A stretch of 64,000 nt of DNA from Candidatus Poribacteria bacterium. GTDB taxonomy: Bacteria; Poribacteria; WGA-4E; WGA-3G. Positions 6,055 to 62,035 of the stretch are shown here, one piece after another (within the stretch, counting starts at the first letter, position 1; every line of letters starts with the position of its first letter). The stretch covers positions 1,874,725 to 1,938,724 of the forward strand of contig OY764016.1 in the NCBI GenBank assembly GCA_963667805.1, read 5' to 3'. The notes under the pieces were generated by a model. The model searched no databases. It worked only from the letters and a program-made list of their open reading frames with translations, and had not been told where the DNA came from. Both the position numbers and the translations under genes were made by a program.

Positions 6055-6173
6055 GCAGGATCCTTTTTATGCGGAGGTTGGTACCATTTTCAAAGAAATC
6101 TCAGAACTGAATGGCGAGATAAAGCGAGGGGCTAAACAATGTTGTCATTAGCGTTAACACCTTAAACCGTATA

Positions 6174-6294
6174 GGACTTACGCAGTTTTGAGCGTAGCGT
6201 GCTTCTGTGAGAAGGAATCCGAAAAAACAACAGACGGACTTTTGGAAACCCAAACTGACAGTTTATGCTACAAAAGAGAACCGCGCGTAAGTCC
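6174..6294 (+). repeat. MITE-like hairpin element, copy A (121 bp, 10-bp perfect terminal inverted repeats GGACTTACGC/GCGTAAGTCC)
   Basis: Compared directly with the reverse complement of 14048-14170. Ends ~85% identical, centre divergent. Confidence 0.75.
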
Positions 6295-14047: not shown

Positions 14048-14170
14048 GGACTTACGCAGGGTTGCTCTTTTGTAGCATAAACTGTTCGTTTGGGTTTCCA
14101 GAAAGTTAACAGCGTTTTTTAGAGAATTGCTATCTAACAGAACGCGCTACACTCAAAATTGCGTAAGTCC
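14048..14170 (-). repeat. MITE-like hairpin element, copy B (inverted orientation relative to copy A)
   Basis: Same TIRs and conserved internal segments (TTTTGAG(C/T)GTAGCG, GGAAACCCAAAC, ACAGTTTATGCTACAAAAGAG). Confidence 0.75.
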
Positions 14171-14293
14171 TGATAGTCTACCATAATTAGACAGGTATGT
14201 GGAGAAAATGTTGAAAAATTGTCTCAAAAAGTGAATTAAAGCAGTTTACTGTGGTTCCACCCATTTGGACGTTCGGAAATTTTTGGACACCCC

Positions 14294-29564: not shown

Positions 29565-29721
29565 TTATGAGTCTCCTTTGTGTTCTCTGAGGAAATTTTC
29601 TAACCACGCATCGGGATCGTATCCGAATCGGCGTAAGAGTTGGCAGCCGACACGTTTGAGAAAATTAGGGATAAAATTAAAGAGTTTAAGTCGCCAATTC
29701 ATTTTTTAATTTGTTGTTCTT

Positions 29722-30047
29722 GGGCTGCTCTCCATTACATTACGAGCAGGTTTCTGGTTAATTTATACTGGATTTGGGAATTTTGACGCTTCTTCGACAA
29801 AACATTAAACCTTTAGCCTGCAACAATACGCAAAAATACCCCGCTGAATGCCACACGCGCAAATGTAATACATTGTCCCGCAAGTCCACACGCGACTTGC
29901 GCTACGGATTTCGTCTATTCCCAGATAAAATCCAGCGTTGATTCGCAAAAACACGCAGGCGGATATACGCAAAGGAACATTATTTATCTGCGGAAACACC
30001 CAAGCAAAAACACCCGCTTCACCGAACCGCAAGGAATAATTAAAAAA
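29722..30047 (+). repeat. composite intergenic repeat region (modules A, B, C-like, D, E of a dispersed repeat family)
   Basis: Contains GGGCTGCTCTCCATTACATTACGAGCAGGTTTCTGG, AGCCTGCAACAATACGC, CCCAAGCAAAAACACCCGC and CCGCAAGGAATAATTAAAAAA, each matching copies at 53.4-59.9 kb. Confidence 0.7.
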
Positions 30048-34507: not shown

Positions 34508-34810
34508 AATCTGAGCGGGGTTTCCGTTGTCAACCCCGATCCAAAATTAATAAAGCACTTTTTTGAGGGTATGAAAGGTAAACCTAACTCAAAACCGCCA
34601 TGTCATGAATCTGAGCGGAGTGTCCGGTGTTAATCCCAGTCCAAAATTAATAAAGCACTTTTTTGAGGGTATGAAAGGTAAACCTAACTCAAAACCACCG
34701 TGTCATGAATCTGAGCGGAGTGTCCGGTGTTAATCCCGATCTAAAATTAATAAAGCACTTTTTTGAGGGTGTGAAAGGTAAACTCGACTTAAAACTGTCG
34801 CGTAATAACC
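34508..34810. repeat. three tandem copies of a 100-bp repeat (copy 3 diverges at its 3' end)
   Basis: Unit AATCTGAGCGGAGTGTCCGGTGTTAATCCCGATCCAAAATTAATAAAGCACTTTTTTGAGGGTATGAAAGGTAAACCTAACTCAAAACCACCGTGTCATG starts at 34508, 34608 and 34708. Confidence 0.9.
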
Positions 34811-39777: not shown

Positions 39778-39957
39778 GGCAGAAAAGCAAATTGATGGCA
39801 AAAACCAGAGCCATTCAGTTTTCGGTTTCTGAGTGCCTTATCGAGAATAGATATGTGACTTTCGGCACAAATCGGGGTTACAAACCCCTCCCACAAGAGA
39901 AATTTGGGACAATTGAATGGCTCTGTGGCGAAAACTAAATTCTATGGACACCCCTAC

Positions 39958-42641: not shown

Positions 42642-42776
42642 TGATTGCTTCTGAGCTGCTGCGGACGTTGTCCTTGCAGATTCTGAATCGTTAAAAAGCC
42701 TTTGATAACTTGGAAATGGTTGGCATTAACCAAAAATCACCGTGAAACGAAGTGGAACGATTTAACAGTTTAAAAA

Positions 42777-44717
42777 ATGCATCAAGACAGACGACACCTC
42801 ATCATTGGCACAGCAGGACACGTTGACCATGGAAAAACCGCGCTCGTCGGGGCACTTACCGGTATGGAAACCGATCGGCTCAAGGAAGAGCAAGAACGTG
42901 GTTTGTCTATTGAGTTAGGGTTTGCCTATTTTGACCTCTCGGACGACTCGCGGGCAGGTATCGTTGACGTTCCAGGTCATGAAAAATTCATCCGAAGCAT
43001 GCTCTCCGGGGCTTACGGTATGGATATCGTCCTCTTCGTCGTTGACGCGAAAGAAGGCGTTCAGGAACAGACCCTCGAACATCTGGCAATCTTAGATCTG
43101 CTCGGCATCTCAAACGGTATCCTCGTCATGACGAAATCCGACTTGGCGACTGCTGATGAATTGGCAGAAGCAACCGAAATGACGCAGGAGATGCTCATCG
43201 GGACAAGCCTTGAAGCCATCCCAACTGTGAGTGTTTCCGCATTAACCGGCGCAGGTATTGAAACACTAAAAGAGACCATCGTCAAACAGGTAGCACTCGC
43301 GACGGAAACCGAAGAAAACGATGGTATCCCGAGATTATACGTTGACAGGGTTTTCACCGTTCAAGGGTTCGGCGTTGTTGTGACAGGCACGCTCATCGGT
43401 GGATCGATCCAGCGAGACCAGCGGATGGTGATTCTTCCACAGGGGCATACTGTGCGGATCCGAGGGATACAGGTCCATAATGAAACTGCACCCGTAGCGC
43501 AAGCCGGACAGCGGACAGCAGTGAACCTTTCCGGCGTCTCTGCCCAGGACCTCCAACGCGGCGATGTCCTTTGCCCAATTGATTTCTCACAAGTGACGGA
43601 CAATATTGACGTGTCGATGCAAGTGCTGTCCTCATTTCCAAGGATACTTGAACATTGGACGCGTCTCCGGGCGTATCTCGGCACTCGCGAAATATTTTGC
43701 AGATTAATCCTACTCGTGGACGATGCCATTTTGCCGGGGGATACCATTCAGGTTCAACTCCGCTTAGAACAACCCATCCTAACGTTCAGAGGCGACAGAA
43801 TTATTTTACGCGATTTTTCAGCGCAATATACAGTCGGGGGTGGTGAAGTTATTAACCCATTTGCCCCAAAGCATAAGCGGTTCACCCCTGAAACCATCGC
43901 TACTTTAGCACAATGGGAAGAAGCCGATGATGCCCAGGTCGTGAACACTGTCTTAGAAAATAGCGAGTCACTCTGCGTGCCAGAGTCCTTCCTGCATTAC
44001 TATTTACCACAGTCACAGACGAACGTGAATGCGATCTTAACCGGCTTGGAAGCAGACGGGAAAATTGTGCGCTGGGATAAATCGGGCAGGTCGCCGCTCG
44101 TTTCTGATGCTGTTCGGACGGCAAATATCAAAGAGAAAATTATAGAAACGTTGACAGCATTCCATTCGGCAGAACCCCTCCTTGCCGGTCAAAATGCTTC
44201 ACAACTGCGTCGAGAACTCAAATTGGACGAAATCGGCTTTGAGAAACTCGAAAACCAACTCATTACCGAGGGGCAACTCGCCAAAGACGGCAATCTTCTC
44301 CGATTGGCATCTCACGAAATCCAGTTTTCCGAAGAGGAAGAAACCGCGAAGGAGAGACTCGAAAAACTATTCTTGGAAGCAGGTATGAATACACCCACTT
44401 TCAACGAACTCAGCACGCACCTTCCAGACTATACACCGCAGTTACTGGAATCCACGTTTTTCGCACTTCTGAACTTAGGGCAGTTTGTCAAAATAGCGGA
44501 TAACTTCTTTATCCACAAAACCGTTTTTGAGGAGATACAGGAATTATTAACCACTTACCTTCGCAAAAATGATACAATAACCGTTGCCGAATTTCGAGAA
44601 ATGGCACAAACTTCTCGAAAATATGCGGTGCCGTTTTTGGAATACTGCGATAGCCGGAACCTCACGATCCGAGACGGGAATATCCGTAAGTTGCATCCGC
44701 GGCACTTGCAGGCATAG
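42777..44717 (+). CDS. selB: selenocysteine-specific translation elongation factor SelB
   Basis: [22 protein letters not shown]-domain. 646 aa with C-terminal winged-helix region. Immediately followed by tRNA-Sec. Confidence 0.9.
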
Positions 44718-44734
44718 TTTGCAGTGTCCATGAT

Positions 44735-44828
44735 GGGGGAGGATAGGGTCCGGTGGCCCTACCGGTCTTCAAAACCGGCTTGTCCATGCAAGTGGATAGG
44801 TGGGTTCGACTCCCACCCTCTCCCGCCA
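44735..44828 (+). tRNA. selC: tRNA-Sec (anticodon TCA), 94 nt with 8-bp acceptor stem and long variable arm; CCA encoded
   Basis: GGGGGAGG...CCTCTCCC acceptor. Anticodon loop CTTCAAA. Extra arm CTTGTCCATGCAAGTGGATAGG. T-arm GGGTTCGACTCCC. Terminal GCCA. Confidence 0.85.
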
Positions 44829-44849: not shown

Positions 44850-44880
44850 GCCATGCAACAACGGCGCATGGCAGATTTTT
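44850..44880 (+). terminator. rho-independent terminator after selC (GCCATGC-AACAACGGC-GCATGGC + AGATTTTT)
   Basis: 7-bp perfect stem with T-run. Confidence 0.7.
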
Positions 44881-49660: not shown

Positions 49661-49718
49661 CCGTCAGCAGTATGGCTGACTGCTATTCTGTCATTTAACC
49701 GCAAGGAAAATTAAAAAG

Positions 49719-50522
49719 ATGATTGGTGTGATTATTAATGGGGCATGTGGCCGTATGGGACGGCTTATTATCCGAGGTGTTACTGAACAAACCGATATGG
49801 AAATCGTCGGCGCGATTGAGTTCCCGGAACACCCACAGCTCGGGAGTGATGCCGGTGTTGTTGCCGGCATCGGAGAAATAGGCGTCGCGGTTACAGGTAA
49901 CCTTGAAGATGTACTTGACAACGCAGATGTTGTCATCGAATTCTCGAAACCTGAGGCTACTCTGGACCACCTCCGACAAGTCGTCAATGCCGACAAAGCG
50001 ATGATAATTGCAACAACCGGATATGACCCTGATGAACTCGCCACTGTCGAAGAACTCGCATCACAGATCCGTTGCGTAATGGCACCCAACATGAGTCTCG
50101 GTGTCAATGTGATGATTCAGGCACTGGAATTAATCGCCAAAGCCCTCGGGGACGATTACGACATTGAAGTGATAGAGGCACATCACAATCACAAAGCAGA
50201 TTCACCCAGCGGCACGGCACTCCGCTTAGCGGAAACCGTTGCTCAGGCATTGGGGCGAGATTTAGATGAGGTCGGTGTCTACGGTCGCCACGGTATCGTT
50301 GGCGCAAGACCGAAAAAACAGATAGGCATTCATGCAGTTCGAGGGGGTGATATCGCCGGCGACCATACAGTATTGTTCGCAACAGAGGGTGAGCAACTCA
50401 GCGTCGTCCACCGAGCACACAGCCCAGAGGCTTTCGCTAAAGGCGCAATCCGCGCAGCGAGATGGGTCATCGACGCCCCTAAAGGATTACATGATATTAG
50501 CGAAGTCCTGTTTCAGGAATAG
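49719..50522 (+). CDS. dapB: 4-hydroxy-tetrahydrodipicolinate reductase, copy 1
   Basis: GACGRMGR NAD(P)-binding motif and EAHHNHKADSPSGTA DapB signature; 267 aa. Confidence 0.85.
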   Translation: MIGVIINGACGRMGRLIIRGVTEQTDMEIVGAIEFPEHPQLGSDAGVVAGIGEIGVAVTGNLEDVLDNADVVIEFSKPEATLDHLRQVVNADKAMIIATTGYDPDELATVEELASQIRCVMAPNMSLGVNVMIQALELIAKALGDDYDIEVIEAHHNHKADSPSGTALRLAETVAQALGRDLDEVGVYGRHGIVGARPKKQIGIHAVRGGDIAGDHTVLFATEGEQLSVVHRAHSPEAFAKGAIRAARWVIDAPKGLHDISEVLFQE

Positions 50523-50593
50523 TAGACACGCCTCTATATCAAAACCGTCAAAGCTCGAATCCACGTTATTTAACCGCAAGGAAAATTAAAAAG

Positions 50594-51391
50594 ATGATTC
50601 GTGTTGCTGTCACCGGTGTTTGCGGTCGTATGGGACGTTGCATCACGCGCGGCATTGCCCAACACCGCAATATGCAACTCGTTGGAGCCGTCCAATACCC
50701 CTCACATCCACAGATCGGAAGTGATGCGGGTGTTGTCGCCGGTATCAGTGAGATTGGCGTAACCATTACAGGCAAACTTGACGACGTACTTCACCGTTCA
50801 GATGTTGTCATCGAATTTTCAAAGCCTGAAGCAACCCTGGACCACCTCCAACACGTCGTCGATGCAGATAAAGCCATGGTTCTTGGAACAACCGGTTTTA
50901 CCGCAGACGAACTCGCGACCCTCCAAGCGCTTGCATCACAGATCCGTTGCGTAATGGCACCCAACATGAGTCTCGGTGTCAATGTAATGATACAAGCATT
51001 GGAATTAATTGCCAAAACCCTGGGAAATGATTATAATATTGAAGTGATAGAGGCACATCACAATCACAAAGCAGATTCACCCAGTGGCACAGCACTCCGT
51101 GTAGCGGAGACGCTTACCACGGCACTTGAGCAAGATTTAGACGAGGCGTGTGTTTACGGTCGCCACGGCATCGTTGGCGCAAGACCGAAAAAACAGATAG
51201 GCATTCATGCAGTTCGAGGGGGCAACATTGCCGGGGATCATACAGTGTTGTTCGCAACAGAGGGTGAACAACTCAGCGTCATCCATCGAGCACACAGTCC
51301 AGAGGCTTTCGCCAAAGGTGCAATCCGCGCAGCGGAATGGATAATCGACGCGCCTAAAGGGTTACACGATGTTAGCGAAGTCCTGTTTTAA
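50594..51391 (+). CDS. dapB: 4-hydroxy-tetrahydrodipicolinate reductase, copy 2 (tandem paralog)
   Basis: About 75% identical to copy 1, with the same signature. Same conserved 25-bp leader before the ATG. Confidence 0.85.
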   Translation: MIRVAVTGVCGRMGRCITRGIAQHRNMQLVGAVQYPSHPQIGSDAGVVAGISEIGVTITGKLDDVLHRSDVVIEFSKPEATLDHLQHVVDADKAMVLGTTGFTADELATLQALASQIRCVMAPNMSLGVNVMIQALELIAKTLGNDYNIEVIEAHHNHKADSPSGTALRVAETLTTALEQDLDEACVYGRHGIVGARPKKQIGIHAVRGGNIAGDHTVLFATEGEQLSVIHRAHSPEAFAKGAIRAAEWIIDAPKGLHDVSEVLF

Positions 51392-53405
51392 CCGATGCCT
51401 GATACCTCACACCTATTTTATTCTGCTATGCATCGGTATTCTATTTATGGTCGGTTGTGAACAAACAGCGTCCCAAAAACAGGTCCGGTACGAGTGGAAA
51501 ACTGTCATAGAAGGCGATTGGAGTTCACACCTCTACGATGTTCATTTCGTTTCTGAAAAGCGGGGTTGGGCAGTTGGTAACGCCATAGATGTACTTCCTG
51601 GCGCCGATTTTGGAGAAGGCGCGGAAAGTCTCATCGTTCACACAAACAACGGTGGCGAAACATGGCACAGACAACACAGCGGCGTTTTCAACAAACCCCT
51701 CCGAAACGTGTATTTTCGTTCAGCGTCAGAAGGCTGGTGTATCGGTGAAGGCGGCGTTCTGATCCGGACAACCGACGGCGGGGAAACCTGGCAGCACATT
51801 GAAACCGGGACGGAAAACAACCTGCATGACCTCTTCATAGGCAATGAAACGGGTTGGATTGTGGGCGACTGGGGCACAGTGCTAAAAACAACCGACGGTG
51901 GGCAGACGTTCGCACAGATTGATGGACAGGCGTTCGGCAGAAAGTCATTGAAAGGTGTCCATTTCGTAGACGAAAACCGAGGATGGGTCGTTACCTATAG
52001 CACACCGACCTCCGAAACAAAATCAGGAAAGGCCGGCTATATCTATCGGACAACCGATGGTGGAGAAACTTGGGAGGTCCAATTCGTGACAGAAGCCGCC
52101 CTGTTCAACCTCCATTTCATAGACAAACAAACGGGTTGGGTTGTCGGTGACCGACGGAGCATCTTCCTGACAACCGACGGTGGGAACACATGGGACTTCG
52201 TCACTCGCGGAACCAATGAACGCCATAAAAGTAGCTACGGTCAACCGGATTATCTCGGCAATGAGCCGCTGCATACCTTTACACTTTACGATCTTGACTT
52301 TATAGATGCCCAAAACGGTTGGATTGTTGGCGACTTAGGCGTGATTCTCCACACCGCGTCGGGTGGAAAAGAAAAATGGAAACATCAACGTGGGGGTCCG
52401 CGTTTCCACAACAGCGCAGATGCCGTCCTGTTAGGTGTTGACTTCGTTTCCAAGCAAATCGGTTGGGCAGTCGGTGAAAACGGCACCATCCTGCACACCC
52501 GCAATGGGGGTGTGACTTGGGAATCCCAATCCAGTCCGAGCCATCTCTTGGTAGGTGTATGCGCCATCTCGCCCGATGAAGGATACGTTGTCGGTGACCG
52601 GGGCGCGATTCTACGAACCGAGGATGGAGGGGTCGTATGGAACGCGCAAGACAGCCGCACGACTGAGTGTTTTGGGGCAACGCATTTCGTGTCATCACAA
52701 ATAGGATGGGCAGTCGCAGAAGCCGGCGTCGTCCTGCATACCACAAATGGTGGCACGGTATGGCAACGTCAAGTTTCAGGGACACAGCAGGACCTGCTCA
52801 GTGTTTTCTTTACAGACGAAAAAAATGGATGGTGTGTCGGAAGCGGCGGTGAAATCATCCACACAGATGATGGTGGGAAAACATGGCAACCGCAAAAGAG
52901 CGGAACCCATTGGAATCTGTTTGACGTTTATTTCATCTCCAAACGACGCGGTTGGGCAGTCGGTCTGAACGGAACAATACTTTTTACAACTGATGGCGGT
53001 ACCAATTGGAAGTTGTTACCGCTCAGCCAACGCTACCCGTCTTTTCTATTGGATGCCGTCACCTTCGTCACCCCAGAGAGAGGCTGGGTCGTAGGATTAG
53101 ATTTACGCAGTTTAGGTATGGATGGTTTGATCCTACATACCGAGAATGGCGGTAAAACATGGCAACGTCAAGAGAGCCATACCCGCAATTTTCTTGACGA
53201 TGTATTTTTTCTATCAGAAACAGAAGGCTGGATTGTTGGAAAAGAGGGACTTGTCCTCCATACAAAGAATGGTGGACAAAACTGGAGACCGCAGCATACA
53301 GATACCAGAACGGATCTGAAGGCTATCCACGTAAGCAGTACAAATAGCGGATGGGCAGTTGGGCAAAATGGAACAATTCTCAGATATGAAGCCGTTCCGT
53401 TTTAG
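51369..53405 (+). CDS. BNR/Ycf48-like (PSII_BNR-type) repeat lipoprotein
   Basis: 678 aa. Lipoprotein-like signal ...LLCIGILFMVGC. About 12 repeats of GW(A/I)VG...T(T/D)DGG(x)TW. Overlaps the dapB copy 2 3' end by 23 nt. Confidence 0.75.
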   Translation: MLAKSCFNRCLIPHTYFILLCIGILFMVGCEQTASQKQVRYEWKTVIEGDWSSHLYDVHFVSEKRGWAVGNAIDVLPGADFGEGAESLIVHTNNGGETWHRQHSGVFNKPLRNVYFRSASEGWCIGEGGVLIRTTDGGETWQHIETGTENNLHDLFIGNETGWIVGDWGTVLKTTDGGQTFAQIDGQAFGRKSLKGVHFVDENRGWVVTYSTPTSETKSGKAGYIYRTTDGGETWEVQFVTEAALFNLHFIDKQTGWVVGDRRSIFLTTDGGNTWDFVTRGTNERHKSSYGQPDYLGNEPLHTFTLYDLDFIDAQNGWIVGDLGVILHTASGGKEKWKHQRGGPRFHNSADAVLLGVDFVSKQIGWAVGENGTILHTRNGGVTWESQSSPSHLLVGVCAISPDEGYVVGDRGAILRTEDGGVVWNAQDSRTTECFGATHFVSSQIGWAVAEAGVVLHTTNGGTVWQRQVSGTQQDLLSVFFTDEKNGWCVGSGGEIIHTDDGGKTWQPQKSGTHWNLFDVYFISKRRGWAVGLNGTILFTTDGGTNWKLLPLSQRYPSFLLDAVTFVTPERGWVVGLDLRSLGMDGLILHTENGGKTWQRQESHTRNFLDDVFFLSETEGWIVGKEGLVLHTKNGGQNWRPQHTDTRTDLKAIHVSSTNSGWAVGQNGTILRYEAVPF

Positions 53406-53455
53406 TACCAGCGGGGAAACCCAAGGGGTGTAGAGAAACATTACACCGAAAACGC

Positions 53456-53597
53456 AGCCTGCAATAATACGCAGAAATACGCAGAAATACCCTATCAAAA
53501 ACCCCAAGCAAAAACACGCGGGGGTTTTTCTTCAACTCGAACATGGAAACCGTTAAAGCACAGACTGCATCGCTTAGCCGCAAGGAAAAATTAAAAA
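53456..53597 (+). repeat. intergenic repeat modules B, C, D, E
   Basis: CAGCCTGCAATAATACGCAG, GAAATACCCTATCAAAAACC (identical 20-mer also at 59848), CCCCAAGCAAAAACACGCGGG, and TTAGCCGCAAGGAAAAATTAAAAA ending at the ATG. Confidence 0.7.
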
Positions 53598-54341
53598 ATG
53601 ACAGACGAACAGAAATATCTATTTGATCTGCAAGGCTTTATTGTCCTGAAGAGTGTTATCCCCCAGGCAGTCGTCGAGGCGTGTAACGCTGTGTTAGATC
53701 AGTACGAGAATATGCCACCCGACGACTATCCACCCCCGCTGTGCCTCGGCACACAGCGAACGGAGAAAGAACTCTACATCTCTAACATCTTAGAGGCAGA
53801 CAGTGTATTCAATACGCTGATCGACATTCCGGAGGTCCTGGACGTAATTCAAGGCGTAACCGGGGGGCCGTATCGACTCAATCACACCTACACAATCTAC
53901 CGGTGGGGAGGTGGTTATACCGGGTTGCACATGCACGGAACACCGATTATCCCGAAATGCCAATATCATTGTAAAAACGGAGAGATGGTATCAACGTTAA
54001 CAAAAGCGGTCTTTCCGATGCTGGATTGTGATATGGAGGACGGGTGCTTCGCTGTTATACCGGGGGCACATAAGAGCAATTTCCCAAAACCTTGGGGAAG
54101 CCACCCCGATGAAAATCCTGTGCTGACCCCGATCCCAGCAAAAGCAGGAGATGCCATCATTTTTACAGAGGCACTTACACACGGGTCTGTCATCAATGTT
54201 TCCGATAAACCGCGTCGGACCCTCTATTACTGCTACAGCATCGGCTATATGCCAGATTGGGGCGGCCAAGGTCTACATTTCAGCCCGAACGTTATGGACA
54301 GCCTCAGTGAATCCCAACAGTCAATCCTTCATCTAAAATAA
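53598..54341 (+). CDS. phytanoyl-CoA dioxygenase (PhyH) family dioxygenase, copy 2
   Basis: 247 aa; His/Asp ligands (RLNHTYTIY... HMHGTP..., HGSV). Confidence 0.65.
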   Translation: MTDEQKYLFDLQGFIVLKSVIPQAVVEACNAVLDQYENMPPDDYPPPLCLGTQRTEKELYISNILEADSVFNTLIDIPEVLDVIQGVTGGPYRLNHTYTIYRWGGGYTGLHMHGTPIIPKCQYHCKNGEMVSTLTKAVFPMLDCDMEDGCFAVIPGAHKSNFPKPWGSHPDENPVLTPIPAKAGDAIIFTEALTHGSVINVSDKPRRTLYYCYSIGYMPDWGGQGLHFSPNVMDSLSESQQSILHLK

Positions 54342-54360
54342 TTTTTAACGATGGACTCCT

Positions 54361-54533
54361 GGACTGCCCTCCATTTCATTACGGGCAGGTTTTTGGTGAG
54401 TCCACAACTACCATAAGGATATGTACGGCATATCATCAAAAAAACAAGCCTGCAACAACGGCGCAGGCGACTCGAACACGCAAGCCGTTAAATTCGCGGA
54501 CCCTATGACTTATCCGCAAGGTAAATTTAAAAT
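54361..54533 (+). repeat. intergenic repeat modules A, B, E
   Basis: GGACTGCCCTCCATTTCATTACGGGCAGGTTTTTGG (matches 29722-29757). GCCTGCAACAACGGCGCAGGC hairpin. TTATCCGCAAGGTAAATTTAAAAT ending at the ATG. Confidence 0.7.
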
Positions 54534-55703
54534 ATGATTACAATCGCAGAACGGTTAGAAAAACTTCCACCCTATCTTTTTGTAGACCTGCGCCAAAAAA
54601 TGCAGGCAGCACAAGCGCGCGGTGTCGATGTGATTAGCCTCGGTATCGGTGACCCGGATCTTCCAACACCTGACCCAGTTGTTGAAACCTTATGTAGTGC
54701 GATTCAAAATCCCGATGATGCAGACAGGCACCGCTACGGCTGCGACAACCCTGTTGACGATTTTCCACAGGCAGTCCTCGACTTTTACCAGCACCGTTAC
54801 GGGGTCTCCTTATCCGATGATCAGGTAGCGACAACGCTCGGTAGTAAAGACGCAATTGTCAAAATGGCACTCGGTATCCTCAATCCGGGCGATATTGGTA
54901 TAGCGGCGAGTCCAGGCTACCCTACCTACAATATCGGACACGTCTTCGCCAGTGCAACGAGCTACTATGCTCCGCTTCTGCGAGAAAATGATTTCTATGT
55001 TGACTTTGACGTTATTCCTGATGAAGTGAAACGACTTGCCAAAGTTCTCTGGATCAACTATCCAAACAATCCGACAACCGCCACTGCCAACCTCGATTTT
55101 TTCGAGCGTGCCGTGGAGTTTGGTAGACAAAATAACATCCTGATCGCGCACGACAACGCCTATAGTGAGAACACCTACGACGGTTATCGCTCACCCAGTA
55201 TATTGCAGGTGGAAGGTGCAGCGGAAGTTGCGGTTGAGTTTTTCTCATTAAGCAAAGCGTTCAACATGACAGGCTGGCGCTTGGGATTTGTCGTTGGCAA
55301 CCCAACTGCTGTTAGTGCAGTCAAAACGGTGAAAGATAATATCGACAACGGTTCACTCCGCTCACTTCAATTCGCCGGTGCAAAGGCACTTTCAATAGCG
55401 GACGAGATTACCCCCGCAATCAATGTCGTTTATCAAAAACGCCGCGATATGGTGGTAGATGCCCTGAGAGACAGCGGGTGGACACTCGAGAAGCCGAAAG
55501 CAACAATGTATGTTTGGGCACCGGTCCCTGAGCGTTTTAACGGTTCAAGTCGTGCCTTTGCGACGGCATTGCTTGAAGAAGCGGGTGTTGTTGTAACACC
55601 AGGTCTCGGATATGGACAGTGGAGCGAAGGCTATTTTAGAATCTCGCTGACATACCCAGACGGAGTGATTGCGGAAGCCATTTCGCGTATTCGCGCTTTT
55701 TAA
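54534..55703 (+). CDS. class I (fold-type I) PLP aminotransferase, LL-diaminopimelate aminotransferase (DapL)-like
   Basis: KLPPYLFVDL...GVDVISLGIGDPDLPTP N-terminal pattern and SLSKAFNMTGWRLG PLP-lysine region. Linked to the dapB genes. Confidence 0.7.
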   Translation: MITIAERLEKLPPYLFVDLRQKMQAAQARGVDVISLGIGDPDLPTPDPVVETLCSAIQNPDDADRHRYGCDNPVDDFPQAVLDFYQHRYGVSLSDDQVATTLGSKDAIVKMALGILNPGDIGIAASPGYPTYNIGHVFASATSYYAPLLRENDFYVDFDVIPDEVKRLAKVLWINYPNNPTTATANLDFFERAVEFGRQNNILIAHDNAYSENTYDGYRSPSILQVEGAAEVAVEFFSLSKAFNMTGWRLGFVVGNPTAVSAVKTVKDNIDNGSLRSLQFAGAKALSIADEITPAINVVYQKRRDMVVDALRDSGWTLEKPKATMYVWAPVPERFNGSSRAFATALLEEAGVVVTPGLGYGQWSEGYFRISLTYPDGVIAEAISRIRAF

Positions 55704-55790
55704 TCTTACCTTGCGGTTCGGTCAGGTGGATTAATAATCTCACGTGCCCTTTCGTATATCCGCCTGCTCCGTTGTTGCAGGCTGCCATCA
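55698..55790 (-). repeat. intergenic repeat modules E and B in inverted orientation
   Basis: CTTACCTTGCGG (rc of CCGCAAGGTAAG) and CCTGCTCCGTTGTTGCAGGC (rc of the module B hairpin). Confidence 0.65.
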
Positions 55791-55893
55791 CTATAATATC
55801 AAGAACCAAACCTGTAATGAAATTTTAATTGGGTGTTTCTTCAAGTTGACAGTTAAAACGGACACAGCGGGCCAGGAGCCCAGAAATTAAAGA

Positions 55894-58800
55894 ATGAAAA
55901 ACGCCATTTTAATCCTTAGCATAGTCTGTCTTACGCTCCTCGTATGTGTAGAAACGGAGTCTGAGCAAATCCTTACCTACACCGTCGCCGATGGATTAAT
56001 AGGTCCCGTTGTCCCTGTCGTTTTTCAGGACAGTCGGGGGGATCTATGGTTCGGTTCCGATCGGGGTGGGGTGAGCCGATTCGATGGGATCAGGTTTGAA
56101 TCTTACATCGGATCTCCAGATACTTCTGAGAACGCGCCCACCTCCAATGTAGGACCTGGGGCACTCCTTGGACAGACACGTCAAATCGTCGAAGACAAAT
56201 GGGGACATATCTGGTTCCTCACGCATTTCCGCGCAGAAAACTCAGGGAGAGTCAGTCGGTTTGACGGTTCTTCTATTAATCTGATAGGCACCGGCAATTC
56301 GCTGCTGGTTGACGATCACGGCGATATATGGGTCGGTGAAAACCAGCAACTTACGAAGTACATCACTCCAGGTGTCCAACGCCTGCCCCAAGCACATCCA
56401 AACGAAATTATAGGCGAAGATCTGCTCCGCTCAAGGGATTTCACAATAAACATTATCTTTCAAAGCGCTGACGGAACGATTTGGATCGGTGGCAGCGAAG
56501 GTGAGGAACAACCACACGGTGTAATCCTCAGTTTCCGAGAGAATCGTTGGGTAGAGGACCCCTTAAAAATCACGGACAGTGATAACGCAAACGAGAAAAC
56601 GGATGATGGAACACAGCGGGTTCATCCAAATATTGGATTTACACGCTACGACTTGTCAAATCTTAACGCTGTGAATGCGATCGAAACGATAGGCGAAGAT
56701 ACTTTTGGAAACCTGTGGTTCGGTGGCTACAATCTTCTCTTACGTTTTGATGGGAAAGTCTTTGAGAAAATCCTCCCTTTAGCTTGGGGACAGAGTGGAT
56801 CCATAGGTAGTAGACCTGCCTCAATACAGAGACTGGCATCAATACAGAATGACACGAAAAATCGAGTCTGGTTCAGCGATGGACGCACGACAAGATGGTG
56901 GCATGACTCTCAGCACGGAAACCTACTGGGGTTTCTTGAGCTCGAGGATGCATGGGGCAATCTATGGTTTACTGACGAAGCTGGAGCACATCAATACGAT
57001 GCCAACCTCACGCAACTGCCCGACCGTATCAACAGTGGACTCGGCGTTGAAGGGATTCATACGATTTATGAAGCCATAGATGGTAAATTGTGGTTTGGCC
57101 ACGATAATGGCGTAACATCATTTGACCCAACACCTGCTATCAGCACACACGCTGGCCTCGGAACCAATAGAGTCCGGATGATATTTGAGGACAGTCGAGG
57201 TTACCTCTGGTTTAGTGTGCCAGGCGGGGTCGCCCGTTACGATGCAGAATCCGAAGAACTTACCACACATATTTTCAGAGTGAGTTCAGTGCAAAATGAT
57301 TCATCGCGCGCCTCTCAAACTGACAATAGAACTATGGAACGCGTTCGGCCCCTTCGAACTGAAATCGAAAAAATATTTGAAGTTGGCGGGCACGTCTGGT
57401 TTATTGACGAACCAGGGGTGGGGGGGAGTTCCACGCGATTGCGATACACTTTCTTTCGATACGCAAATGGCAAGTTCGGTCAAGTGTCTATTCCCATCCA
57501 AACAGCAATCGGGCCCGGTGGCGAACGGTCAGATACCAACACAAATGTTCTCGTCCACGAAGGCGAACATACTTGGATGGCTTTCGGAGGGCACCTCTTT
57601 AGAGCCGACGCAACGGGATTATTACGGTTGACAAACACCGGCTTTCAAAGAATCCCGTTTCAAGAAATCGGTCCGAACACTACGCCTACGCCAATACCCC
57701 CAATAACATTCGGTGCAGCCGCCATCACCGATGTATACAGAGATTCCAACGGTAGATTATGGGTCCACCTCGATAACGGAGAGTCTCTACGCTATCCGAA
57801 AGCAATTAACACGGCAACAAATCGTCCGAGTAAACCCGAAACCCTTCCCCTTAAAGCGACAACCCTGTTAAAAATTGCATCAGGAAGCAAATGGTTCTTT
57901 AACGCCGTAACGGGAAAATTGATACTTTGGAGTGATACTGAACTCGGTAGCCCACTTCCGCTCGATGGAGAGTCGAGTACGCTCCCGATTGCTGTTTGGA
58001 AGAACCCAAGAGCGGAAAATAACCGAATAACTTTTCTTTTTCCCGATGCTCTCAAGACTTATCACGGCACAACGCTCATTTCTCTTGAGTCCATTGAACT
58101 CGCTGAACTACAAGACTCCCTAACGACGCAGGACGGCGTGCTCTGGTTAGCAACATCCCGCGGGGTAATCCGCTATGATGGCGAAAAGGCGAAAACCTAT
58201 ACAACAAAAGAAGATGGCTTTCTCGTTGACAACGTGAAAGATGTCATGGAGGATAGCCGCGGAAATATATGGTTCGCGACATGGGGCGGCGGCACTGTCC
58301 GATACGACGGTGAAACCTTTTATAACCTCACAACAAAAGACGGGCTCACTCATAACAATATCTCGAAAATTCATGAATCTTCCAATAAAGATATTTGGTT
58401 TACAACCGAAGGGGGCGTCACACAATATACACCCACACGTGGTGGACTGCCAGAATGTCGACTGACCTCCCTTGAATCTGATAAAATTTACACCGACCTT
58501 TCATCGAGTTTAACGCTACCCTCGCGCGGAACGAAGATATTAAATATCCAAGGTATCAGTCCGCTCCGAGAAGGGCTTTCCTATCGATTTAAATTAATTG
58601 GGCTGGACACCCCTACATGGACAAACGTTTCGGCACAGGAGTTCTCGCTTCTGGCAACAGGTGCCGGCGGAACCTCCGACGCCTGGACCCCTTCTACCAC
58701 CTCCGTGTCGACACCGCAGCATACCATGCGCGACAGTGGTATTGTTCAAGAACTCCAAAATCAAGATGGGATTCTGCGTATCCGATATACAGGGCTTAAA

Positions 58801-59766
58801 GCAGGCAATTACAGGTTCCTGGTCACGGCATTCCGTAAAGATTGGCCCTATACACATACGCCAGCAGTGGTGGATTTCAGTATATCACCACCCCTCTGGA
58901 CGCGGTGGCGGACTTATCTTCCAACAGTCATCTTTATGACCGTTGTTCTAACGCTCATTGGTCGTCTGATTGTAAACCGTCGCCATACCCTACAACTGCG
59001 TAATGAAGTGCGTCAAAGGGAAGAAGCGGAGATACAACGTATCCGTGCTGAACTGAGCGAAGCGCAGAATATTCAGATGGGACTTCTACCGACCGAAGCC
59101 CCGGATACGAAAGGGTTTGATGTCGCAGGTATGTCGGTCCCCGCAACACAGGTAGGTGGCGACTTCTACGATTACCTCACCGTCGCGAACGGACAGACCG
59201 CTATCGCGGTCGCAGATGCCGCCGGAAAAGGATTAAGAGGCGCAATGAATGCCGTGCTAACGAATGGGATGCTATATGAAGTCTCGCGTTTCAAGTCCGA
59301 ATCGGGTATCATTCTCACGGATCTCAATGCCGGGTTAGCCCCACGCATGTACGGACCGAGTTTCATCGCGCTGAACCTCGCTGTGCTTGATGAAAATAAT
59401 AAACGCGTTGACTATGCGAACGGCGGACAACCCTATCCTGTTCTTAAGCGAGGGGCGGAGATCATTGAAATTGAAAATAGCGATCTTCCACTTGGCAGTA
59501 TGAAAAAGGTGGAGTATGAGTCGGTCACCTTCGATTTAGATGCGGGTGACGTCCTAATTTTTCATAGCGACGGTCTGATTGAGGCGCTCAATACAGAAGA
59601 GGAAATGTATGGCACGGAACGTTTAAAGGAAGTGGTTTCAGAAATTCCTGATGGTTTCACTGCGACAGAAGTTATCCAAAGCCTCGTTGACGATGTTCAA
59701 AACTTCGTGGGAGAAGCGGAGCAATACGACGATATGACAATCGTTGTTATCAAAATCCCCTTTTAA
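55894..59766 (+). CDS. giant sensor: periplasmic Reg_prop/Y_Y_Y beta-propeller region - TM helix - coiled coil - PP2C-type (SpoIIE/RsbU-like) serine phosphatase
   Basis: 1290 aa with signal peptide. Reg_prop-like repeats. TM LPTVIFMTVVLTLIGRLIV. Coiled coil REEAEIQRIRAELSEAQNIQ. Phosphatase motifs GGDFYDY, DAAGKG, FHSDGL. Confidence 0.8.
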   Translation: MKNAILILSIVCLTLLVCVETESEQILTYTVADGLIGPVVPVVFQDSRGDLWFGSDRGGVSRFDGIRFESYIGSPDTSENAPTSNVGPGALLGQTRQIVEDKWGHIWFLTHFRAENSGRVSRFDGSSINLIGTGNSLLVDDHGDIWVGENQQLTKYITPGVQRLPQAHPNEIIGEDLLRSRDFTINIIFQSADGTIWIGGSEGEEQPHGVILSFRENRWVEDPLKITDSDNANEKTDDGTQRVHPNIGFTRYDLSNLNAVNAIETIGEDTFGNLWFGGYNLLLRFDGKVFEKILPLAWGQSGSIGSRPASIQRLASIQNDTKNRVWFSDGRTTRWWHDSQHGNLLGFLELEDAWGNLWFTDEAGAHQYDANLTQLPDRINSGLGVEGIHTIYEAIDGKLWFGHDNGVTSFDPTPAISTHAGLGTNRVRMIFEDSRGYLWFSVPGGVARYDAESEELTTHIFRVSSVQNDSSRASQTDNRTMERVRPLRTEIEKIFEVGGHVWFIDEPGVGGSSTRLRYTFFRYANGKFGQVSIPIQTAIGPGGERSDTNTNVLVHEGEHTWMAFGGHLFRADATGLLRLTNTGFQRIPFQEIGPNTTPTPIPPITFGAAAITDVYRDSNGRLWVHLDNGESLRYPKAINTATNRPSKPETLPLKATTLLKIASGSKWFFNAVTGKLILWSDTELGSPLPLDGESSTLPIAVWKNPRAENNRITFLFPDALKTYHGTTLISLESIELAELQDSLTTQDGVLWLATSRGVIRYDGEKAKTYTTKEDGFLVDNVKDVMEDSRGNIWFATWGGGTVRYDGETFYNLTTKDGLTHNNISKIHESSNKDIWFTTEGGVTQYTPTRGGLPECRLTSLESDKIYTDLSSSLTLPSRGTKILNIQGISPLREGLSYRFKLIGLDTPTWTNVSAQEFSLLATGAGGTSDAWTPSTTSVSTPQHTMRDSGIVQELQNQDGILRIRYTGLKAGNYRFLVTAFRKDWPYTHTPAVVDFSISPPLWTRWRTYLPTVIFMTVVLTLIGRLIVNRRHTLQLRNEVRQREEAEIQRIRAELSEAQNIQMGLLPTEAPDTKGFDVAGMSVPATQVGGDFYDYLTVANGQTAIAVADAAGKGLRGAMNAVLTNGMLYEVSRFKSESGIILTDLNAGLAPRMYGPSFIALNLAVLDENNKRVDYANGGQPYPVLKRGAEIIEIENSDLPLGSMKKVEYESVTFDLDAGDVLIFHSDGLIEALNTEEEMYGTERLKEVVSEIPDGFTATEVIQSLVDDVQNFVGEAEQYDDMTIVVIKIPF

Positions 59767-59888
59767 TTTTTCCTTGCGGATCTTTAATTATACCTTGCGG
59801 AGAAAGGACGTGCGTTGGAACTATTAGATGCGTTCCTCAAATCTGAAGAAATACCCTATCAAAAACCCTGCACCGTTGTTGCAGGCTA
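59761..59888 (-). repeat. intergenic repeat: two inverted module E copies, module C, and inverted module B hairpin acting as minus-strand terminator
   Basis: TTCCTTGCGGATC and TACCTTGCGGAG (rc CCGCAAGG...). GAAATACCCTATCAAAAACC. CCTGCACCGTTGTTGCAGG. Confidence 0.7.
59858..59885 (-). terminator. rho-independent terminator for the minus-strand kinase/nucleotidyltransferase gene (CCTGC-AACAACGGT-GCAGG + GTTTTTGAT on minus strand)
   Basis: Hairpin with T-run when read on the minus strand, 48 nt past the stop at 59933. Confidence 0.6.
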
Positions 59889-59932
59889 CACCTTTGGTTT
59901 AATGTTCTATTCTTATAAGGGTATCAGTTGCC

Positions 59933-61852
59933 CTAAGCCCCCATGAACTCAATAACTGTTTGCCGATATTCCTCAGGGAGACCGATGTCAAACCGTCTCC
60001 CTTTGACAATGTACCCGGAAAATCCGTCCGCCTTCCGCAATTCGTCTAAACAGGACGTAAGTTGAAATTCGCCTCGCTCCCGGAGATTATGGGTGATATT
60101 TCGTTCCAGAAACTCGAAAATCTGGGGTTGAAGCACATAGATACCGAACACCGTTAAGAACTGGTCCATATCCATCCCATCTACGTGCAAATGTTCCATT
60201 GCATACTCAGGATCGGGTTTCTCATAAATCTCTGTTAGCGAGAGTAGGGAATTCTGTTCTCTCCATGCGCCGGTGACACAACCGAAGTTCGACAACTGCT
60301 CGATCGGTGTCACTTTCAGACCGACGACACTATGGCCCACCCGCTCATAAGCCTCTACGACCTGTCGTGCACAACATCTCTCCTCATCTGAACCGTAGAG
60401 ATGATCGCCGAGCATGAGCAGAAACGGTTCGTTTCCAACCCATTCTCTCGCGCAATAGACGGCATGTCCGAAACCCTCTTGAACGTCTTGTGTGACGAAT
60501 GACACGCGGCTCCCCAATTCCAGCAGCGCGTCGCAATACGCCTGGTTCTCCTTACTGAGTTTGTTATAATGTTCAATCCGTGGCGGTGTCTGGAAAAACG
60601 ATTCAAAAAGCTCGGTATCTCCGGGCTGCACGATAAGGCAGACTTCTTCAATGCCGGCATTGATCGCCTCTTCAACGATTGCCATGATTGCCGGTTTGGC
60701 ACGTCCAGACTTATCAATAACAGGGAAGAGTTCCTTCTTCATCGCCTTTGATGCCGGAAAGAGTCGCGTTCCGAAGCCAGCGGCAGGAATAACGGCTTTG
60801 CGGACATGCCGACCCGCCTCAATAACCAGTTTCAGGCACGACATCTCCAAATCCCGTTCAATAATCTCAATGACGCGCTGTTGGCTCGCTTCATCTTTGA
60901 CAATGAATTGCGCAGAACCATCCCCTTGCGATCCCACACCTTTACCGCCCCAGATATACGGCTGAATCGGTTCATAATTCAGGACTTTGTGGAGAACAGG
61001 TGCCGTCAATTGTGATGGACATGCGGGTATCAAATGCTTATCGAATTCTGTTTGTGCGCACGTCATGAGTTTACCGACCGCTTCTGCATCTCCATCGCGA
61101 AGTGCTTGATACGCCTGCTGCGTAATCTCTGCACTCAACGGACCGAGATAGTGTTGCACGTTTTTTTCTAATTCACTCTCTGCAAATGGATAACAGTGAT
61201 TTAATTGGCTCAATATCAGGCGTGTATCTTTACTGGCACCGAGATCAACAATTACAAGGTACATGTCGTGAGGCACACTGAAGTCTTTTACATCAATATG
61301 GTCACCGTCAAACGTCATGAGAATAGGACGTTGGTATGCACACCCTTGGTCCATGCGTCCACACCGTGAAGGCGTTGTCGTCTCCCCTCGGTAAGCATAT
61401 TCCATTTCTCCGCGCGTTGTTAATTTAAGATCATAGGTCCGGTTAAAGGCGCGTGCCACCAGCACACTGATAGCGGCACTCGAAGATAACCCTTTTCTGA
61501 CAGGTAAATCTGTGAGATAGTTGTCGATTTCCAAGCCTTGCACACGGTAGTTCGTTAAAATCTCATAGGCGACGCCAGCAGCATAACTAAAAAACTCACC
61601 TTTTTCAGCTTCAGCGAGCAGGGCGCTTCGCTCCATAGGCAAACTATAAGGACCGTGGCGTGTCCCATCGCTGAGGGTCGTTTTTAAAATCAGACGGTTC
61701 GGATGCGGTTTAACCTCGGCGTATACACCTTGGTTTGTGCTGGTTATTAACGTATAGCCCCTTTCGAGCGCTGCGTTACTTCGCCGGTGCCCACCTGCCC
61801 AATCGCTGTGCTCACCGAACAGGCAAATCCTTCCCGGCACAAAAAGTTTCAT
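59933..61852 (-). CDS. bifunctional GHMP sugar-1-kinase (galactokinase-like, N-terminal) / sugar-1-phosphate nucleotidyltransferase (UTP--glucose-1-P uridylyltransferase-like, C-terminal) fusion
   Basis: N-terminal PGRICLFGEHSDWAGG (galactokinase signature) and GLSSSAA GHMP motif. C-terminal KAVIPAAGFGTRLFPASKAMKKELFPV (GalU-type signature). Confidence 0.8.
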   Translation of the reverse strand: MKLFVPGRICLFGEHSDWAGGHRRSNAALERGYTLITSTNQGVYAEVKPHPNRLILKTTLSDGTRHGPYSLPMERSALLAEAEKGEFFSYAAGVAYEILTNYRVQGLEIDNYLTDLPVRKGLSSSAAISVLVARAFNRTYDLKLTTRGEMEYAYRGETTTPSRCGRMDQGCAYQRPILMTFDGDHIDVKDFSVPHDMYLVIVDLGASKDTRLILSQLNHCYPFAESELEKNVQHYLGPLSAEITQQAYQALRDGDAEAVGKLMTCAQTEFDKHLIPACPSQLTAPVLHKVLNYEPIQPYIWGGKGVGSQGDGSAQFIVKDEASQQRVIEIIERDLEMSCLKLVIEAGRHVRKAVIPAAGFGTRLFPASKAMKKELFPVIDKSGRAKPAIMAIVEEAINAGIEEVCLIVQPGDTELFESFFQTPPRIEHYNKLSKENQAYCDALLELGSRVSFVTQDVQEGFGHAVYCAREWVGNEPFLLMLGDHLYGSDEERCCARQVVEAYERVGHSVVGLKVTPIEQLSNFGCVTGAWREQNSLLSLTEIYEKPDPEYAMEHLHVDGMDMDQFLTVFGIYVLQPQIFEFLERNITHNLRERGEFQLTSCLDELRKADGFSGYIVKGRRFDIGLPEEYRQTVIEFMGA

Positions 61853-62035
61853 TTTTTTAACTATGGCCTCCTGGACATCACTCCACTACGTTTCGTGATG
61901 GTTTTTGATAAATTCCGACGCGATTGGGGATAGGCACGGTTAGAAACCTCTCTGTTTTCTCTACTCACGCTTTGAATTGTCGCTGTTATCAATGATATTA
62001 TATTATGAAGCCAACCCTTAAGTCAACAAGGGACC

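Follow-up and report, generated by a model that had tools for sequence, protein, structure and literature searches.

In a 64,000-nucleotide (nt) stretch of a Candidatus Poribacteria genome (assembly GCA_963667805.1, contig OY764016.1, positions 1,874,725 to 1,938,724; the whole stretch is called the window here), a short intergenic motif, module E, directly precedes the start codons of several genes. We consider it likely that module E is the 3' part of a mosaic intergenic repeat family of Poribacteria, with a tail that acts as a start-proximal translation signal and not as the mark of a regulon of diaminopimelate (DAP) and PhyH genes. The family is widespread and its tails lie flush with the starts of unrelated genes, which argues for a general-purpose genome repeat and against a control signal of the lysine pathway.

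RESULTS

The preliminary description of this DNA counted eight copies of module E, and the count held. A search for CCGCAAGGWAWAATTAAA with up to 3 mismatches found the module at 30027+, 49699+, 50574+, 53578+, 54514+, 55699-, 59762-, and 59783- (signs give the strand), compared to a mean of 0.23 matches in shuffled sequence, with none of 100 shuffles reaching eight. The strict 19-mer of the module was present six times (0.04 expected) and its octamer CCGCAAGG nine times (1.97 expected). Copies are 19 to 22 nt long and follow the pattern CCGCAAGG(W)A..TTAAA. As had also been proposed, four plus-strand copies stop 0 to 1 nt short of an ATG, namely those of dapB1 (49719), dapB2 (50594), a PhyH gene (53598), and a class I/II aminotransferase gene (54534); these start codons are real, because orthologues begin at the same codon. 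Three copies (30027+, 55699-, and 59762-) contain the TAA of a gene that reads into the element, and 59783- is a tandem duplicate, 21 nt on from 59762-.

Companion modules B, C, and D were checked by comparing the intergenic regions with the window in short-word BLAST and by pattern search, and all three were recovered. Module B (AGCCTGCAACAACGG) is exact at 54447+, 55783-, and 59887- and degenerate at 29815+ and 53456+, with a variant carrying a compensated stem at 44850+. In module C, 53483-53504 and 59847-59868 are identical over 22 nt, and module D at 29999-30013 matches 53503-53517. Module A (29722 and 54361) did not survive as a separate module: read on the minus strand, it is a hairpin of the same family with a loop of 13 nt, and it is part of the short-form element described below. 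Two additional short-form copies, absent from the preliminary description, lie at 42726-42776 (+) and 61853-61913 (-). Profiles of the long and short forms together gave 11 matches in the window, all within 29.7-61.9 kb. Outside these matches are a hairpin-only copy beside the selenocysteine tRNA gene (tRNA-Sec) and a tail-only copy before a gene encoding 1290 amino acids (aa).

We scanned 185,579 species-representative genomes for the exact pattern CCGCAAGGAAAAWTWAAAA. The pattern matched at least 118 stretches, and 76 of the 80 matches listed were in Poribacteria, among them many metagenome-assembled genomes (MAGs) and complete chromosomes. The remaining four listed matches came from two unnamed MAGs, one Chlamydiae MAG, and one Vagococcus; those in the Chlamydiae MAG and Vagococcus have no upstream similarity and are probably due to chance. 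Viral contigs, scanned with a looser pattern, yielded only isolated single matches and therefore no sign of a phage link. The family is lineage-specific and dispersed over many poribacterial species. The aminotransferase has hundreds of homologues at 85-93% identity, and the named ones are Candidatus Poribacteria MAGs. Loci anchored on a motif match held one extra copy per 9.3 kb. We put the density at about one element per 6 to 20 kb, or a few hundred per genome, an estimate that is rough because the number of scan matches is a lower bound and the loci were chosen by the motif.

When the 70 to 80 nt upstream of every scan match were aligned, the upstream regions formed a single family, in which module E is the 3' end of a mosaic element: a Shine-Dalgarno (SD)-like, A/U-rich tail that closes in TTAAAAA. 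In the long form (about 88 nt), an A-rich flank and (C/T)(G/A)TA lead into a 21-nt hairpin, after which come a center of about 44 nt and the tail CCGCAAGGAAAATTAAAAA. The short form (about 65 nt) shares this hairpin and has the flank TTAACCGAAAACCT and the tail AGyCCAGGAGnCCATAAATTAAAAA, flush with the ATG. There are at least three alternative centers (GGATATACGG..CCTGACCGAA; GGATTTAAGAAAGG..CGTyGTTTCT or TTTAA; and GACTCGAACACG..TATGACTTAT). A type 2 variant carries about 22 to 23 extra nt (GTTTTTGCTTGGGyGTTTCTTCA) directly after the hairpin, and modules C and D are the opposite strand of this insertion. The element is thus a mosaic, in which at least three centers, two tails, and a nested 22-nt insert are all combined with one hairpin family. 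Mean column identity of the element alignment was 69%, with about 88 nt alignable across copies, spacer positions included, and some copies form tandem arrays with periods of 86, 117, and 137 nt. The alignment revealed no terminal inverted repeats (TIRs), since the A-rich flank and hairpin at the 5' end are unrelated to the CCGCAAGG..TTAAAAA at the 3' end.

The hairpin is 21 nt long, with a covarying stem of 4 to 6 bp and a conserved loop (GNAAYRNARTGGA or AACAACGGN); the two loop types have little sequence in common. The 100% pairing in our first alignment was circular, because the copies had been selected for a stem. Copies were therefore re-chosen by their 13-nt loop sequence alone, and 40 of 57 then had a perfect stem of 4 bp or longer (chance, about 0.4%), with 13 distinct stem sequences represented. 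These include GCCC/GGGC, GTCC/GGAC, GCCT/AGGC, GCTC/GAGC, CTCT/AGAG, and GTTC/GAAC, and the 6-bp stems of the short form covary as well (CTGCCC/GGGCAG, CACCGC/GCGGTG, and CATCAC/GTGATG). At its 5' foot, the stem is preceded mostly by CGTA-G, TGTA-G, or CATA-G in the long form and by ACCT or ACCA in the short form. This covariation shows that the hairpin is under structural selection, with the stem kept by compensatory changes. A helix pairing alignment columns 37-42 with 66-71 was also considered and was not supported.

The preliminary description had also suggested that the element donates terminators, and this part of the proposal was not borne out. Read in its own orientation, the element has no U-tract after the hairpin, and the region contained 10 terminator-like sites compared to 11.7 expected. 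On the minus strand, T-runs do follow two hairpins (54448-54468 and 59867-59885), and the resemblance to a terminator is limited to some copies and to the opposite strand only.

Position relative to genes was scored for 119 copies in the window and in 77 poribacterial loci, with open reading frames (ORFs) of at least 60 codons. An ORF start adjoins the tail in 81 of the 119 copies (68%, a figure for this sample and not a census). Counted from the first C of the motif, the start codon is at exactly 20 nt in 54 of these 81 and at 20 ± 1 nt in 70. Another 16 copies are met by a converging ORF whose TAA falls inside the TTTTTAAT of a reversed module, and most of the others are internal units of tandem arrays. 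Where the arrangement was informative, the nearest upstream gene was co-directional in 94 of 106 cases (89%), at a median distance of 153 nt, so that a typical case is one element filling an intercistronic gap. Ensemble folding predictions give the spacer between the SD-like core and the ATG an unpaired probability of 0.7-0.9. An ATG follows 94% of copies, and we considered whether the codon belongs to the element. We rejected this idea, given that 35 of 42 element-less genes also begin with ATG and that reversed copies have no CAT. Sites resembling the sigma-70 consensus numbered 18 in comparison with 12.7 ± 3.4 expected, with none recurring in the element, although this consensus may not be the host's.

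The genes downstream of the element do not share a function. The 78 downstream proteins fell into 58 unrelated BLASTP families, and 73 of them matched a total of 115 Pfam families with no lysine or DAP theme (e.g., TIM-barrel sugar isomerases, PhyH, ABC permeases, LpxC, sulfatases, and extracytoplasmic function [ECF] sigma factors). The suggestion that the module is a shared leader coordinating DAP/lysine and PhyH genes is not supported, given this diversity and given orthologous dapB, PhyH, and aminotransferase genes that carry another form of the element or none.

Comparison of orthologous sites revealed turnover of the element around stable genes. Gene order was conserved in four related loci (L001, L002, L207, and L208) from SelB to the GHMP/nucleotidyl-transferase gene, in the order SelB, tRNA-Sec, lipoyl synthase, PQQ protein, solute-binding protein, cytochrome c, dapB, dapB, BNR protein, PhyH, aminotransferase, SpoIIE-type protein, and GHMP/nucleotidyl-transferase. 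This synteny indicates that the tandem dapB pair is old and that the genes are core; the tandem dapB paralogues (49719-51391 in the window) are kept in all four loci. Against this background, whether an orthologous gene has the long form, the short form, or no element depends on the genome and the site. The PhyH start has a long form in the window, a short form in L207, L208, and the Joint Genome Institute (JGI) population L209, and a native SD sequence without an element in L001 and L002. For dapB1, there is a long form in L001 and L207, a module E remnant in the window and in the relative L155, and a short form in L002 and L208. The aminotransferase start has module E and ATG in the window, L207, and L208, a hairpin-less AGGAG..ATAATTAAAAAT in L209, and AGGAG with TTG in L001 and L002. 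L155 is about 93-95% identical to the window over the 8 kb that it covers, with coding sequence that aligns up to the stop and start codons, and yet its intergenic regions before SelB and after tRNA-Sec are wholly different.

One copy appears to be a local product. The dapB2 leader is identical over 32 nt to 49693-49724, including ATGATT, the first two codons, and the two dapB genes are 75% identical. The center of the dapB2 element matches the dapB1 element of L001, while L001 and L207 have no element before dapB2. We infer that the dapB2 copy probably arose by local conversion from dapB1, including the 5' end of the gene, in the lineage of the window. Local duplication, a scenario that had been named as a refutation of the proposal, thus accounts for the dapB1/dapB2 pair only and fails in general, as the motif occurs in many Poribacteria.

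The 3' end of the aminotransferase gene provided a view of a junction. A metagenome scan with a conserved 26-mer of this gene returned five loci from two populations, with one informative allele. The ancestral gene ends in ..ATT CGC GAT TTT TCG CAC TAA (L001 and L208, with L002 similar). In L209 the end is ..CGC GAT TTT TAA followed by TTTTACCTTGCGGTTCGGTCAGG (the junction is also written TTTTACCTTGCGG), and in the window it is ..CGC GCT TTT TAA followed by TCTTACCTTGCGGTTCGGTCAGG (also written TCTTACCTTGCGG). A reversed long form has therefore been joined inside the T-run of the gene, with two codons lost and the stop supplied by the element, so that the protein ends in ..RAF* in the window compared to the ancestral ..RDFSH*. 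A different sequence (CGCGTTTTTTAGATATTGGG) is joined at the same T-run in L207, which suggests a preference for joining at A/T tracts beside ORF ends. In L209, the reversed long form contains a 22-nt mini-insert that is absent from the window copy, indicating that submodules come and go inside existing copies. Separately, L207:11150-11290 and L208:8862-8960 contain a palindromic repeat (ATCATCAACTCGTGC ... GGAGTCGAGTTGATGG, about 60 nt) that is placed after T-runs at the 3' ends of genes. It is a candidate terminator-like dispersed element, joining at the same T-run as the reversed long form.

Within the window, the long form is complete in two places. The copy at 54440-54533 (+), identified by nhmmer (E = 1.2e-14, profile positions 5-97) and by alignment, has the hairpin GCCTGC-AACAACGGC-GCAGGC at 54448-54468, a GACTCGAACACG-type center, and module E at 54514-54533, flush with the aminotransferase ATG (54534). 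The reversed copy at 55698-55788 (-; nhmmer E = 2.9e-17) has its hairpin at 55762-55782 and module E at 55698-55716, and its TTTTTAAT provides the aminotransferase stop (55701-55703). A further long form, on the minus strand at 59761-59896 and recovered by short-word BLAST, the module E pattern, and nhmmer, holds a 22-nt mini-insert (module C, 59847-59868), a hairpin at 59866-59886, and module E twice (59783-59800 and 59761-59779), the last of which gives the TAA (59764-59766) of the 1290-aa SpoIIE-type gene. The rest are reduced or altered. A degenerate long form at 53455-53597 (+; sequence, BLAST, and nhmmer) retains a hairpin remnant (53456-53474), mini-modules C and D (53482-53520), and module E (53578-53597), flush with the PhyH ATG at 53598. 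Before the dapB2 ATG (50594) is a 5'-truncated long form at 50542-50593 (+), reduced to the center and module E (50574-50592), and before the dapB1 ATG (49719) is the remnant also seen in L155, at 49690-49718 (+), comprising module E only (49699-49717). An expanded degenerate long form at 29815-30047 (+), supported by sequence, BLAST, and nhmmer, contains a hairpin remnant (29816-29836), module D (29999-30013), and a module E (30027-30047) that overlaps the TAA (30040-30042) of a minus-strand ABC ATPase gene.

Both former module A sites are short forms on the minus strand. The one at 29700-29762 (E = 2.4e-11, nhmmer with the short-form profile) has the hairpin GCTC-GTAATGTAATGGA-GAGC at 29727-29747 and a tail ending in ..ACAAATTAAAAA. 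Next to this tail is the ATG of a 45-codon ORF, which lies upstream of a thiamine pyrophosphate (TPP)-enzyme gene. The ORF (29565-29699, -) begins at 29699, directly after the tail, and runs as far as the GTG with which the TPP-enzyme gene starts (29564). It could be an upstream ORF that the element has created or serves, or a spurious frame. The other, at 54342-54399 (nhmmer E = 1.1e-13), is reversed, with its hairpin at 54366-54386 and its tail AGTCCAGGAGTCCATCGTTAAAAA directly past the PhyH stop (54339-54341), and it forms a head-to-head doublet, tails outward, with the long form at 54440-54533. Of the two newly found copies, the one at 42726-42776 (+) is partly degenerate (nhmmer E = 3.7e-06), with a hairpin at 42740-42760 and the tail TTTAACAGTTTAAAAA flush with the SelB ATG (42777). 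The copy at 61853-61913 (-; nhmmer E = 1.9e-16) has the hairpin TCAC-GAAACGTAGTGGA-GTGA at 61878-61898 and the tail TGTCCAGGAGGCCATAGTTAAAAAA, flush with the ATG at 61852 (-) of the GHMP-kinase/nucleotidyl-transferase gene.

The two partial copies outside the profile matches are a tail and a hairpin. A short-form-type initiation tail without an intact hairpin (CCAGGAGCCCAGAAATTAAAGA, 55872-55893, +), with 2 mismatches to the short-form tail and 0 such matches expected, directly precedes the ATG (55894) of the 1290-aa gene. A solitary hairpin, GCCATGC-AACAACGGC-GCATGGC followed by ATTTTTG, lies at 44850-44872 (+) just 3' of tRNA-Sec and is absent in L155.

DISCUSSION

The proposal that module E belongs to a mosaic element of the BOX/Correia/REP kind that donates initiation regions is supported and can be extended, in that the element is modular, occurs across Poribacteria, and abuts a start codon in the majority of copies. 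How such an element would work can be outlined from its parts. The tail may be a portable ribosome-binding region, made of an SD-like AAGGA or AGGAG and an unstructured A/U-rich spacer. The hairpin would act on the transcript or the DNA, for example as an mRNA-stabilizing stem or a protein recognition site; in operons it probably affects the transcript, much as REP stem-loops affect the stability of upstream mRNA, or else is a handle for copying. New copies could arise by insertion or illegitimate recombination at A/T tracts beside ORF ends, and mosaics by gene conversion between copies. At the 3' ends of genes, reversed copies are probably tolerated owing to TTTTTAAT, which closes an ORF quickly.

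Several results count against this interpretation. The case for a ribosome-binding role is positional, and the SD-like core lies 11-15 nt from the ATG, in comparison with 6-9 nt for the native AGGAGG in these genomes. Given that distance, initiation may depend more on the unstructured A/U-rich spacer. The scan pattern itself resembles a ribosome-binding site, which introduces ascertainment bias into the frequency of start-adjoining tails and into the copy numbers. Folding energies of single copies are unremarkable (z of +0.9 to -1.7), and support for the hairpin comes from covariation, not from stability. A further candidate helix, which would join the two ends of the center (alignment columns 44-51 with 74-81), is paired in 67% compared to 60% in shuffles, a difference that is only suggestive and could reflect co-inherited subfamilies. 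As for movement, no target-site duplication was seen at the aminotransferase 3' junction, where global alignment with empty-site relatives found the distal flank too diverged to align beyond the T-run. A motif search of 724 kb of loci for a transposase-type ORF (RAYT/HUH/Y1) matched only Ldh_2 dehydrogenases. Because TIRs, a clear target-site duplication, and a transposase were all lacking in what was searched, the argument for mobility is made by the presence/absence comparisons.

Other explanations make different use of these features. The covarying hairpin could be a true repetitive extragenic palindromic (REP) sequence, GTAG-headed and moved in single-stranded DNA by a REP-associated tyrosine transposase (RAYT), with the tail as a passenger, as in the bacterial interspersed mosaic element (BIME) clusters of Escherichia coli. 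This would fit the (C/T)(G/A)TA-G directly 5' of the stem in most long forms, the high extragenic copy number, the mosaics with other motifs, and the head-to-head doublets. However, the stems are just 4-6 bp with loops of 9-13 nt, the short form has ACCT and not GTAG before its stem, and 89% of copies lie upstream of co-directional genes instead of at 3' ends or between convergent genes. Nor did the loci searched contain an HUH/Y1-type ORF (by the motif search) or an inverted hairpin pair around a transposase-sized ORF, and we regard a REP/RAYT system as somewhat unlikely. A more far-reaching idea, which we judge unlikely, is an actively targeted, mobile translation-initiation cassette, in which dedicated machinery reads the hairpin and inserts the element at A/T tracts exactly at ORF boundaries. 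That machinery would be an RNA-templated process or a single-strand transposase of the RAYT kind. Over time, hundreds of genes would have had their native ribosome-binding sites replaced, and a factor binding the hairpin could add post-transcriptional control throughout the phylum.

Repetition might instead be due to selection and not mobility, if a trans-acting protein or RNA bound the loop and SD region of a conserved cis-regulatory leader and co-regulated the genes that carry it. Protein-bound RNA hairpins likewise have a conserved loop on a covarying stem, most copies are oriented with the downstream gene, and in some orthologues module E is retained between species that differ in the upstream parts. 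This explanation seems to us quite unlikely, though, because the downstream genes have no common function, the orthologues of close relatives lack the element or have its other form, and the two loop types are so dissimilar in sequence. The complete and well-preserved reversed copy at 55698-55788 has no ORF to serve, and tandem arrays and nested inserts are typical of selfish repeats. A purely local origin, by segmental duplication or gene conversion of one upstream region inside the 30-kb locus, is highly improbable: identical leaders on tandem paralogues, and the missing dapB2 element in L001 and L207, recommend it for the dapB2 copy, where it survives, but the same element precedes unrelated genes in dozens of other poribacterial genomes, and upstream modules differ among the other copies in the window. 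We give equally little credence to convergence, by which ordinary intrinsic terminators and ordinary ribosome-binding sites would look alike because they approach the same optimum. Two hairpins (54448-54468 and 59867-59885) do have minus-strand T-runs, and the tails are A-rich like many native leaders. Convergence would not explain why about 88 nt align across copies, including nonfunctional spacer positions, or why, among the matches listed, the exact 19-mer is essentially confined to one phylum out of 185,579 species genomes; moreover, terminator-like and promoter-like sites are at background levels, and the element's own orientation has no U-tract.

Among known elements, the closest functional analogue is REP2 of Neisseria, together with the similar IR of Borrelia plasmids. 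These are dispersed intergenic sequences without TIRs that have one or more 5' stem-loops and a 3' ribosome-binding site fused to the ATG of unrelated ORFs (PMC3184786). The poribacterial element, compared with REP2 by description, shares the start-fused ribosome-binding end, the 5' hairpin, and the lack of TIRs. REP2 is 120-150 bp long, occurs in about 26 copies in one genus, has a promoter, and its genes are co-regulated (PMC3184786). In contrast, the poribacterial element is 65-115 nt long, probably numbers hundreds per genome across many species of a candidate phylum, and has no evident promoter, two alternative tails, several centers, and reversed copies fused to stop codons.

Resemblance to other classes is partial. 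Like REP, SMAG, and BIME sequences (PMC3184786), the element has a short palindrome, preceded in most long forms by a GTAG-like head, as well as many extragenic copies, mosaics, and inverted doublets. Unlike them, its stems are much shorter, and the hairpin is one module of a longer, oriented unit. REP sequences prefer gene 3' ends, whereas this element prefers positions upstream of a co-directional gene; its short form lacks GTAG, and the motif search of the 724 kb of loci found no RAYT gene. Mycobacterial interspersed repetitive units (MIRUs; PMC3184786) are similar in being units of 40-100 bp in polycistronic intergenic regions that form tandem arrays, have ends overlapping the ends of flanking ORFs, and are absent from the corresponding sites of related species. 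However, MIRUs have translation-coupling small ORFs and short direct repeats at filled sites, features not evident here, and they do not combine a conserved hairpin with an SD sequence. Putative mobile promoters (Matus-Garcia et al. 2012, PMC3488235) are also highly similar stretches of 50-100 nt upstream of nonhomologous genes within and between genomes, and in this operational sense the poribacterial element can be counted among them. That class is operational, defined at ≥80% identity and read as promoters (PMC3488235), whereas in Poribacteria it is the translation-initiation end that is conserved, mostly between co-directional genes, in an alignment with a mean column identity of 69%. Finally, miniature inverted-repeat transposable elements (MITEs) such as Correia and BOX are small, noncoding, modular repeats that alter the expression signals of their neighbors, BOX being likewise modular. 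The poribacterial element differs from MITEs in having no TIRs, no recognizable target-site duplication, and a fixed polarity to the downstream gene.

The statement that the repeat is not a catalogued element appears correct. Searches against Rfam 15 matched only tRNA genes in the window (at the gathering threshold and also at E ≤ 0.5) and in 149 kb of loci with about 50 copies, and full-text literature searches on Poribacteria repeats and on the motif returned nothing relevant. A "Poribacteria-1" RNA motif was reportedly described by Weinberg and colleagues in 2017; the name had no match in the full texts searched.

If the tail of the poribacterial repeat is a working ribosome-binding site, a sizeable fraction of the genes in an abundant phylum of uncultivated sponge symbionts would owe their translation signals to the spread of a repeat instead of to gene-specific evolution. 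REP2 has this role on a much smaller scale, for about two dozen Neisseria genes. For annotation, the element is a precise marker of true start codons in Poribacteria. It also accounts for wholly different intergenic regions between genomes that are about 95% identical over the aligned segment, and it cautions against reading repeated leaders in poribacterial genomes as regulons. Its covarying hairpin, with a conserved loop, is a candidate binding site for a protein.

OTHER REPEATS AND FEATURES OF THE WINDOW

The SelB gene is directly followed by tRNA-Sec (44735-44828; 78 bits, RF01852), the two together spanning 42777-44828, and the presence of both indicates that the organism uses selenocysteine.

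Several other repeats were found in noncoding DNA. An intergenic element of 122 nt at 39806-39927 has perfect 13-nt TIRs (CCAGAGCCATTCA ... TGAATGGCTCTGG) and is 97.5% identical to L099:5134-5255 from a different poribacterial MAG. It is a candidate MITE-like element or long-stem RNA, unrelated to the module E family. Three tandem 100-nt units, 83-91% identical, occupy 34508-34807 between two minus-strand genes. On the minus strand, the first of these units contains the hairpin GGGGTT-GACAACGGA-AACCCC, with a loop similar to that of module B (AACAACGG). An inverted repeat of about 120 nt (6161-6290 and 14052-14171; 80% identical, core CAAACTGACAGTTTATGCTACAA) encloses about 7.8 kb of minus-strand genes, and related pieces in four other loci (L002, L126, L137, and L145) indicate that it represents another dispersed poribacterial family. 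Lastly, at positions occupied in the window by the module E element, relatives have other intergenic repeats (L155:189-370 and intergenic regions of L002 and L001), among them runs of heptamer-like GTTATCA/GTTATCG units and paired CCC..AGTAACGGG..GGG hairpins. The intergenic DNA of Poribacteria looks like a patchwork to which several repeat families contribute.

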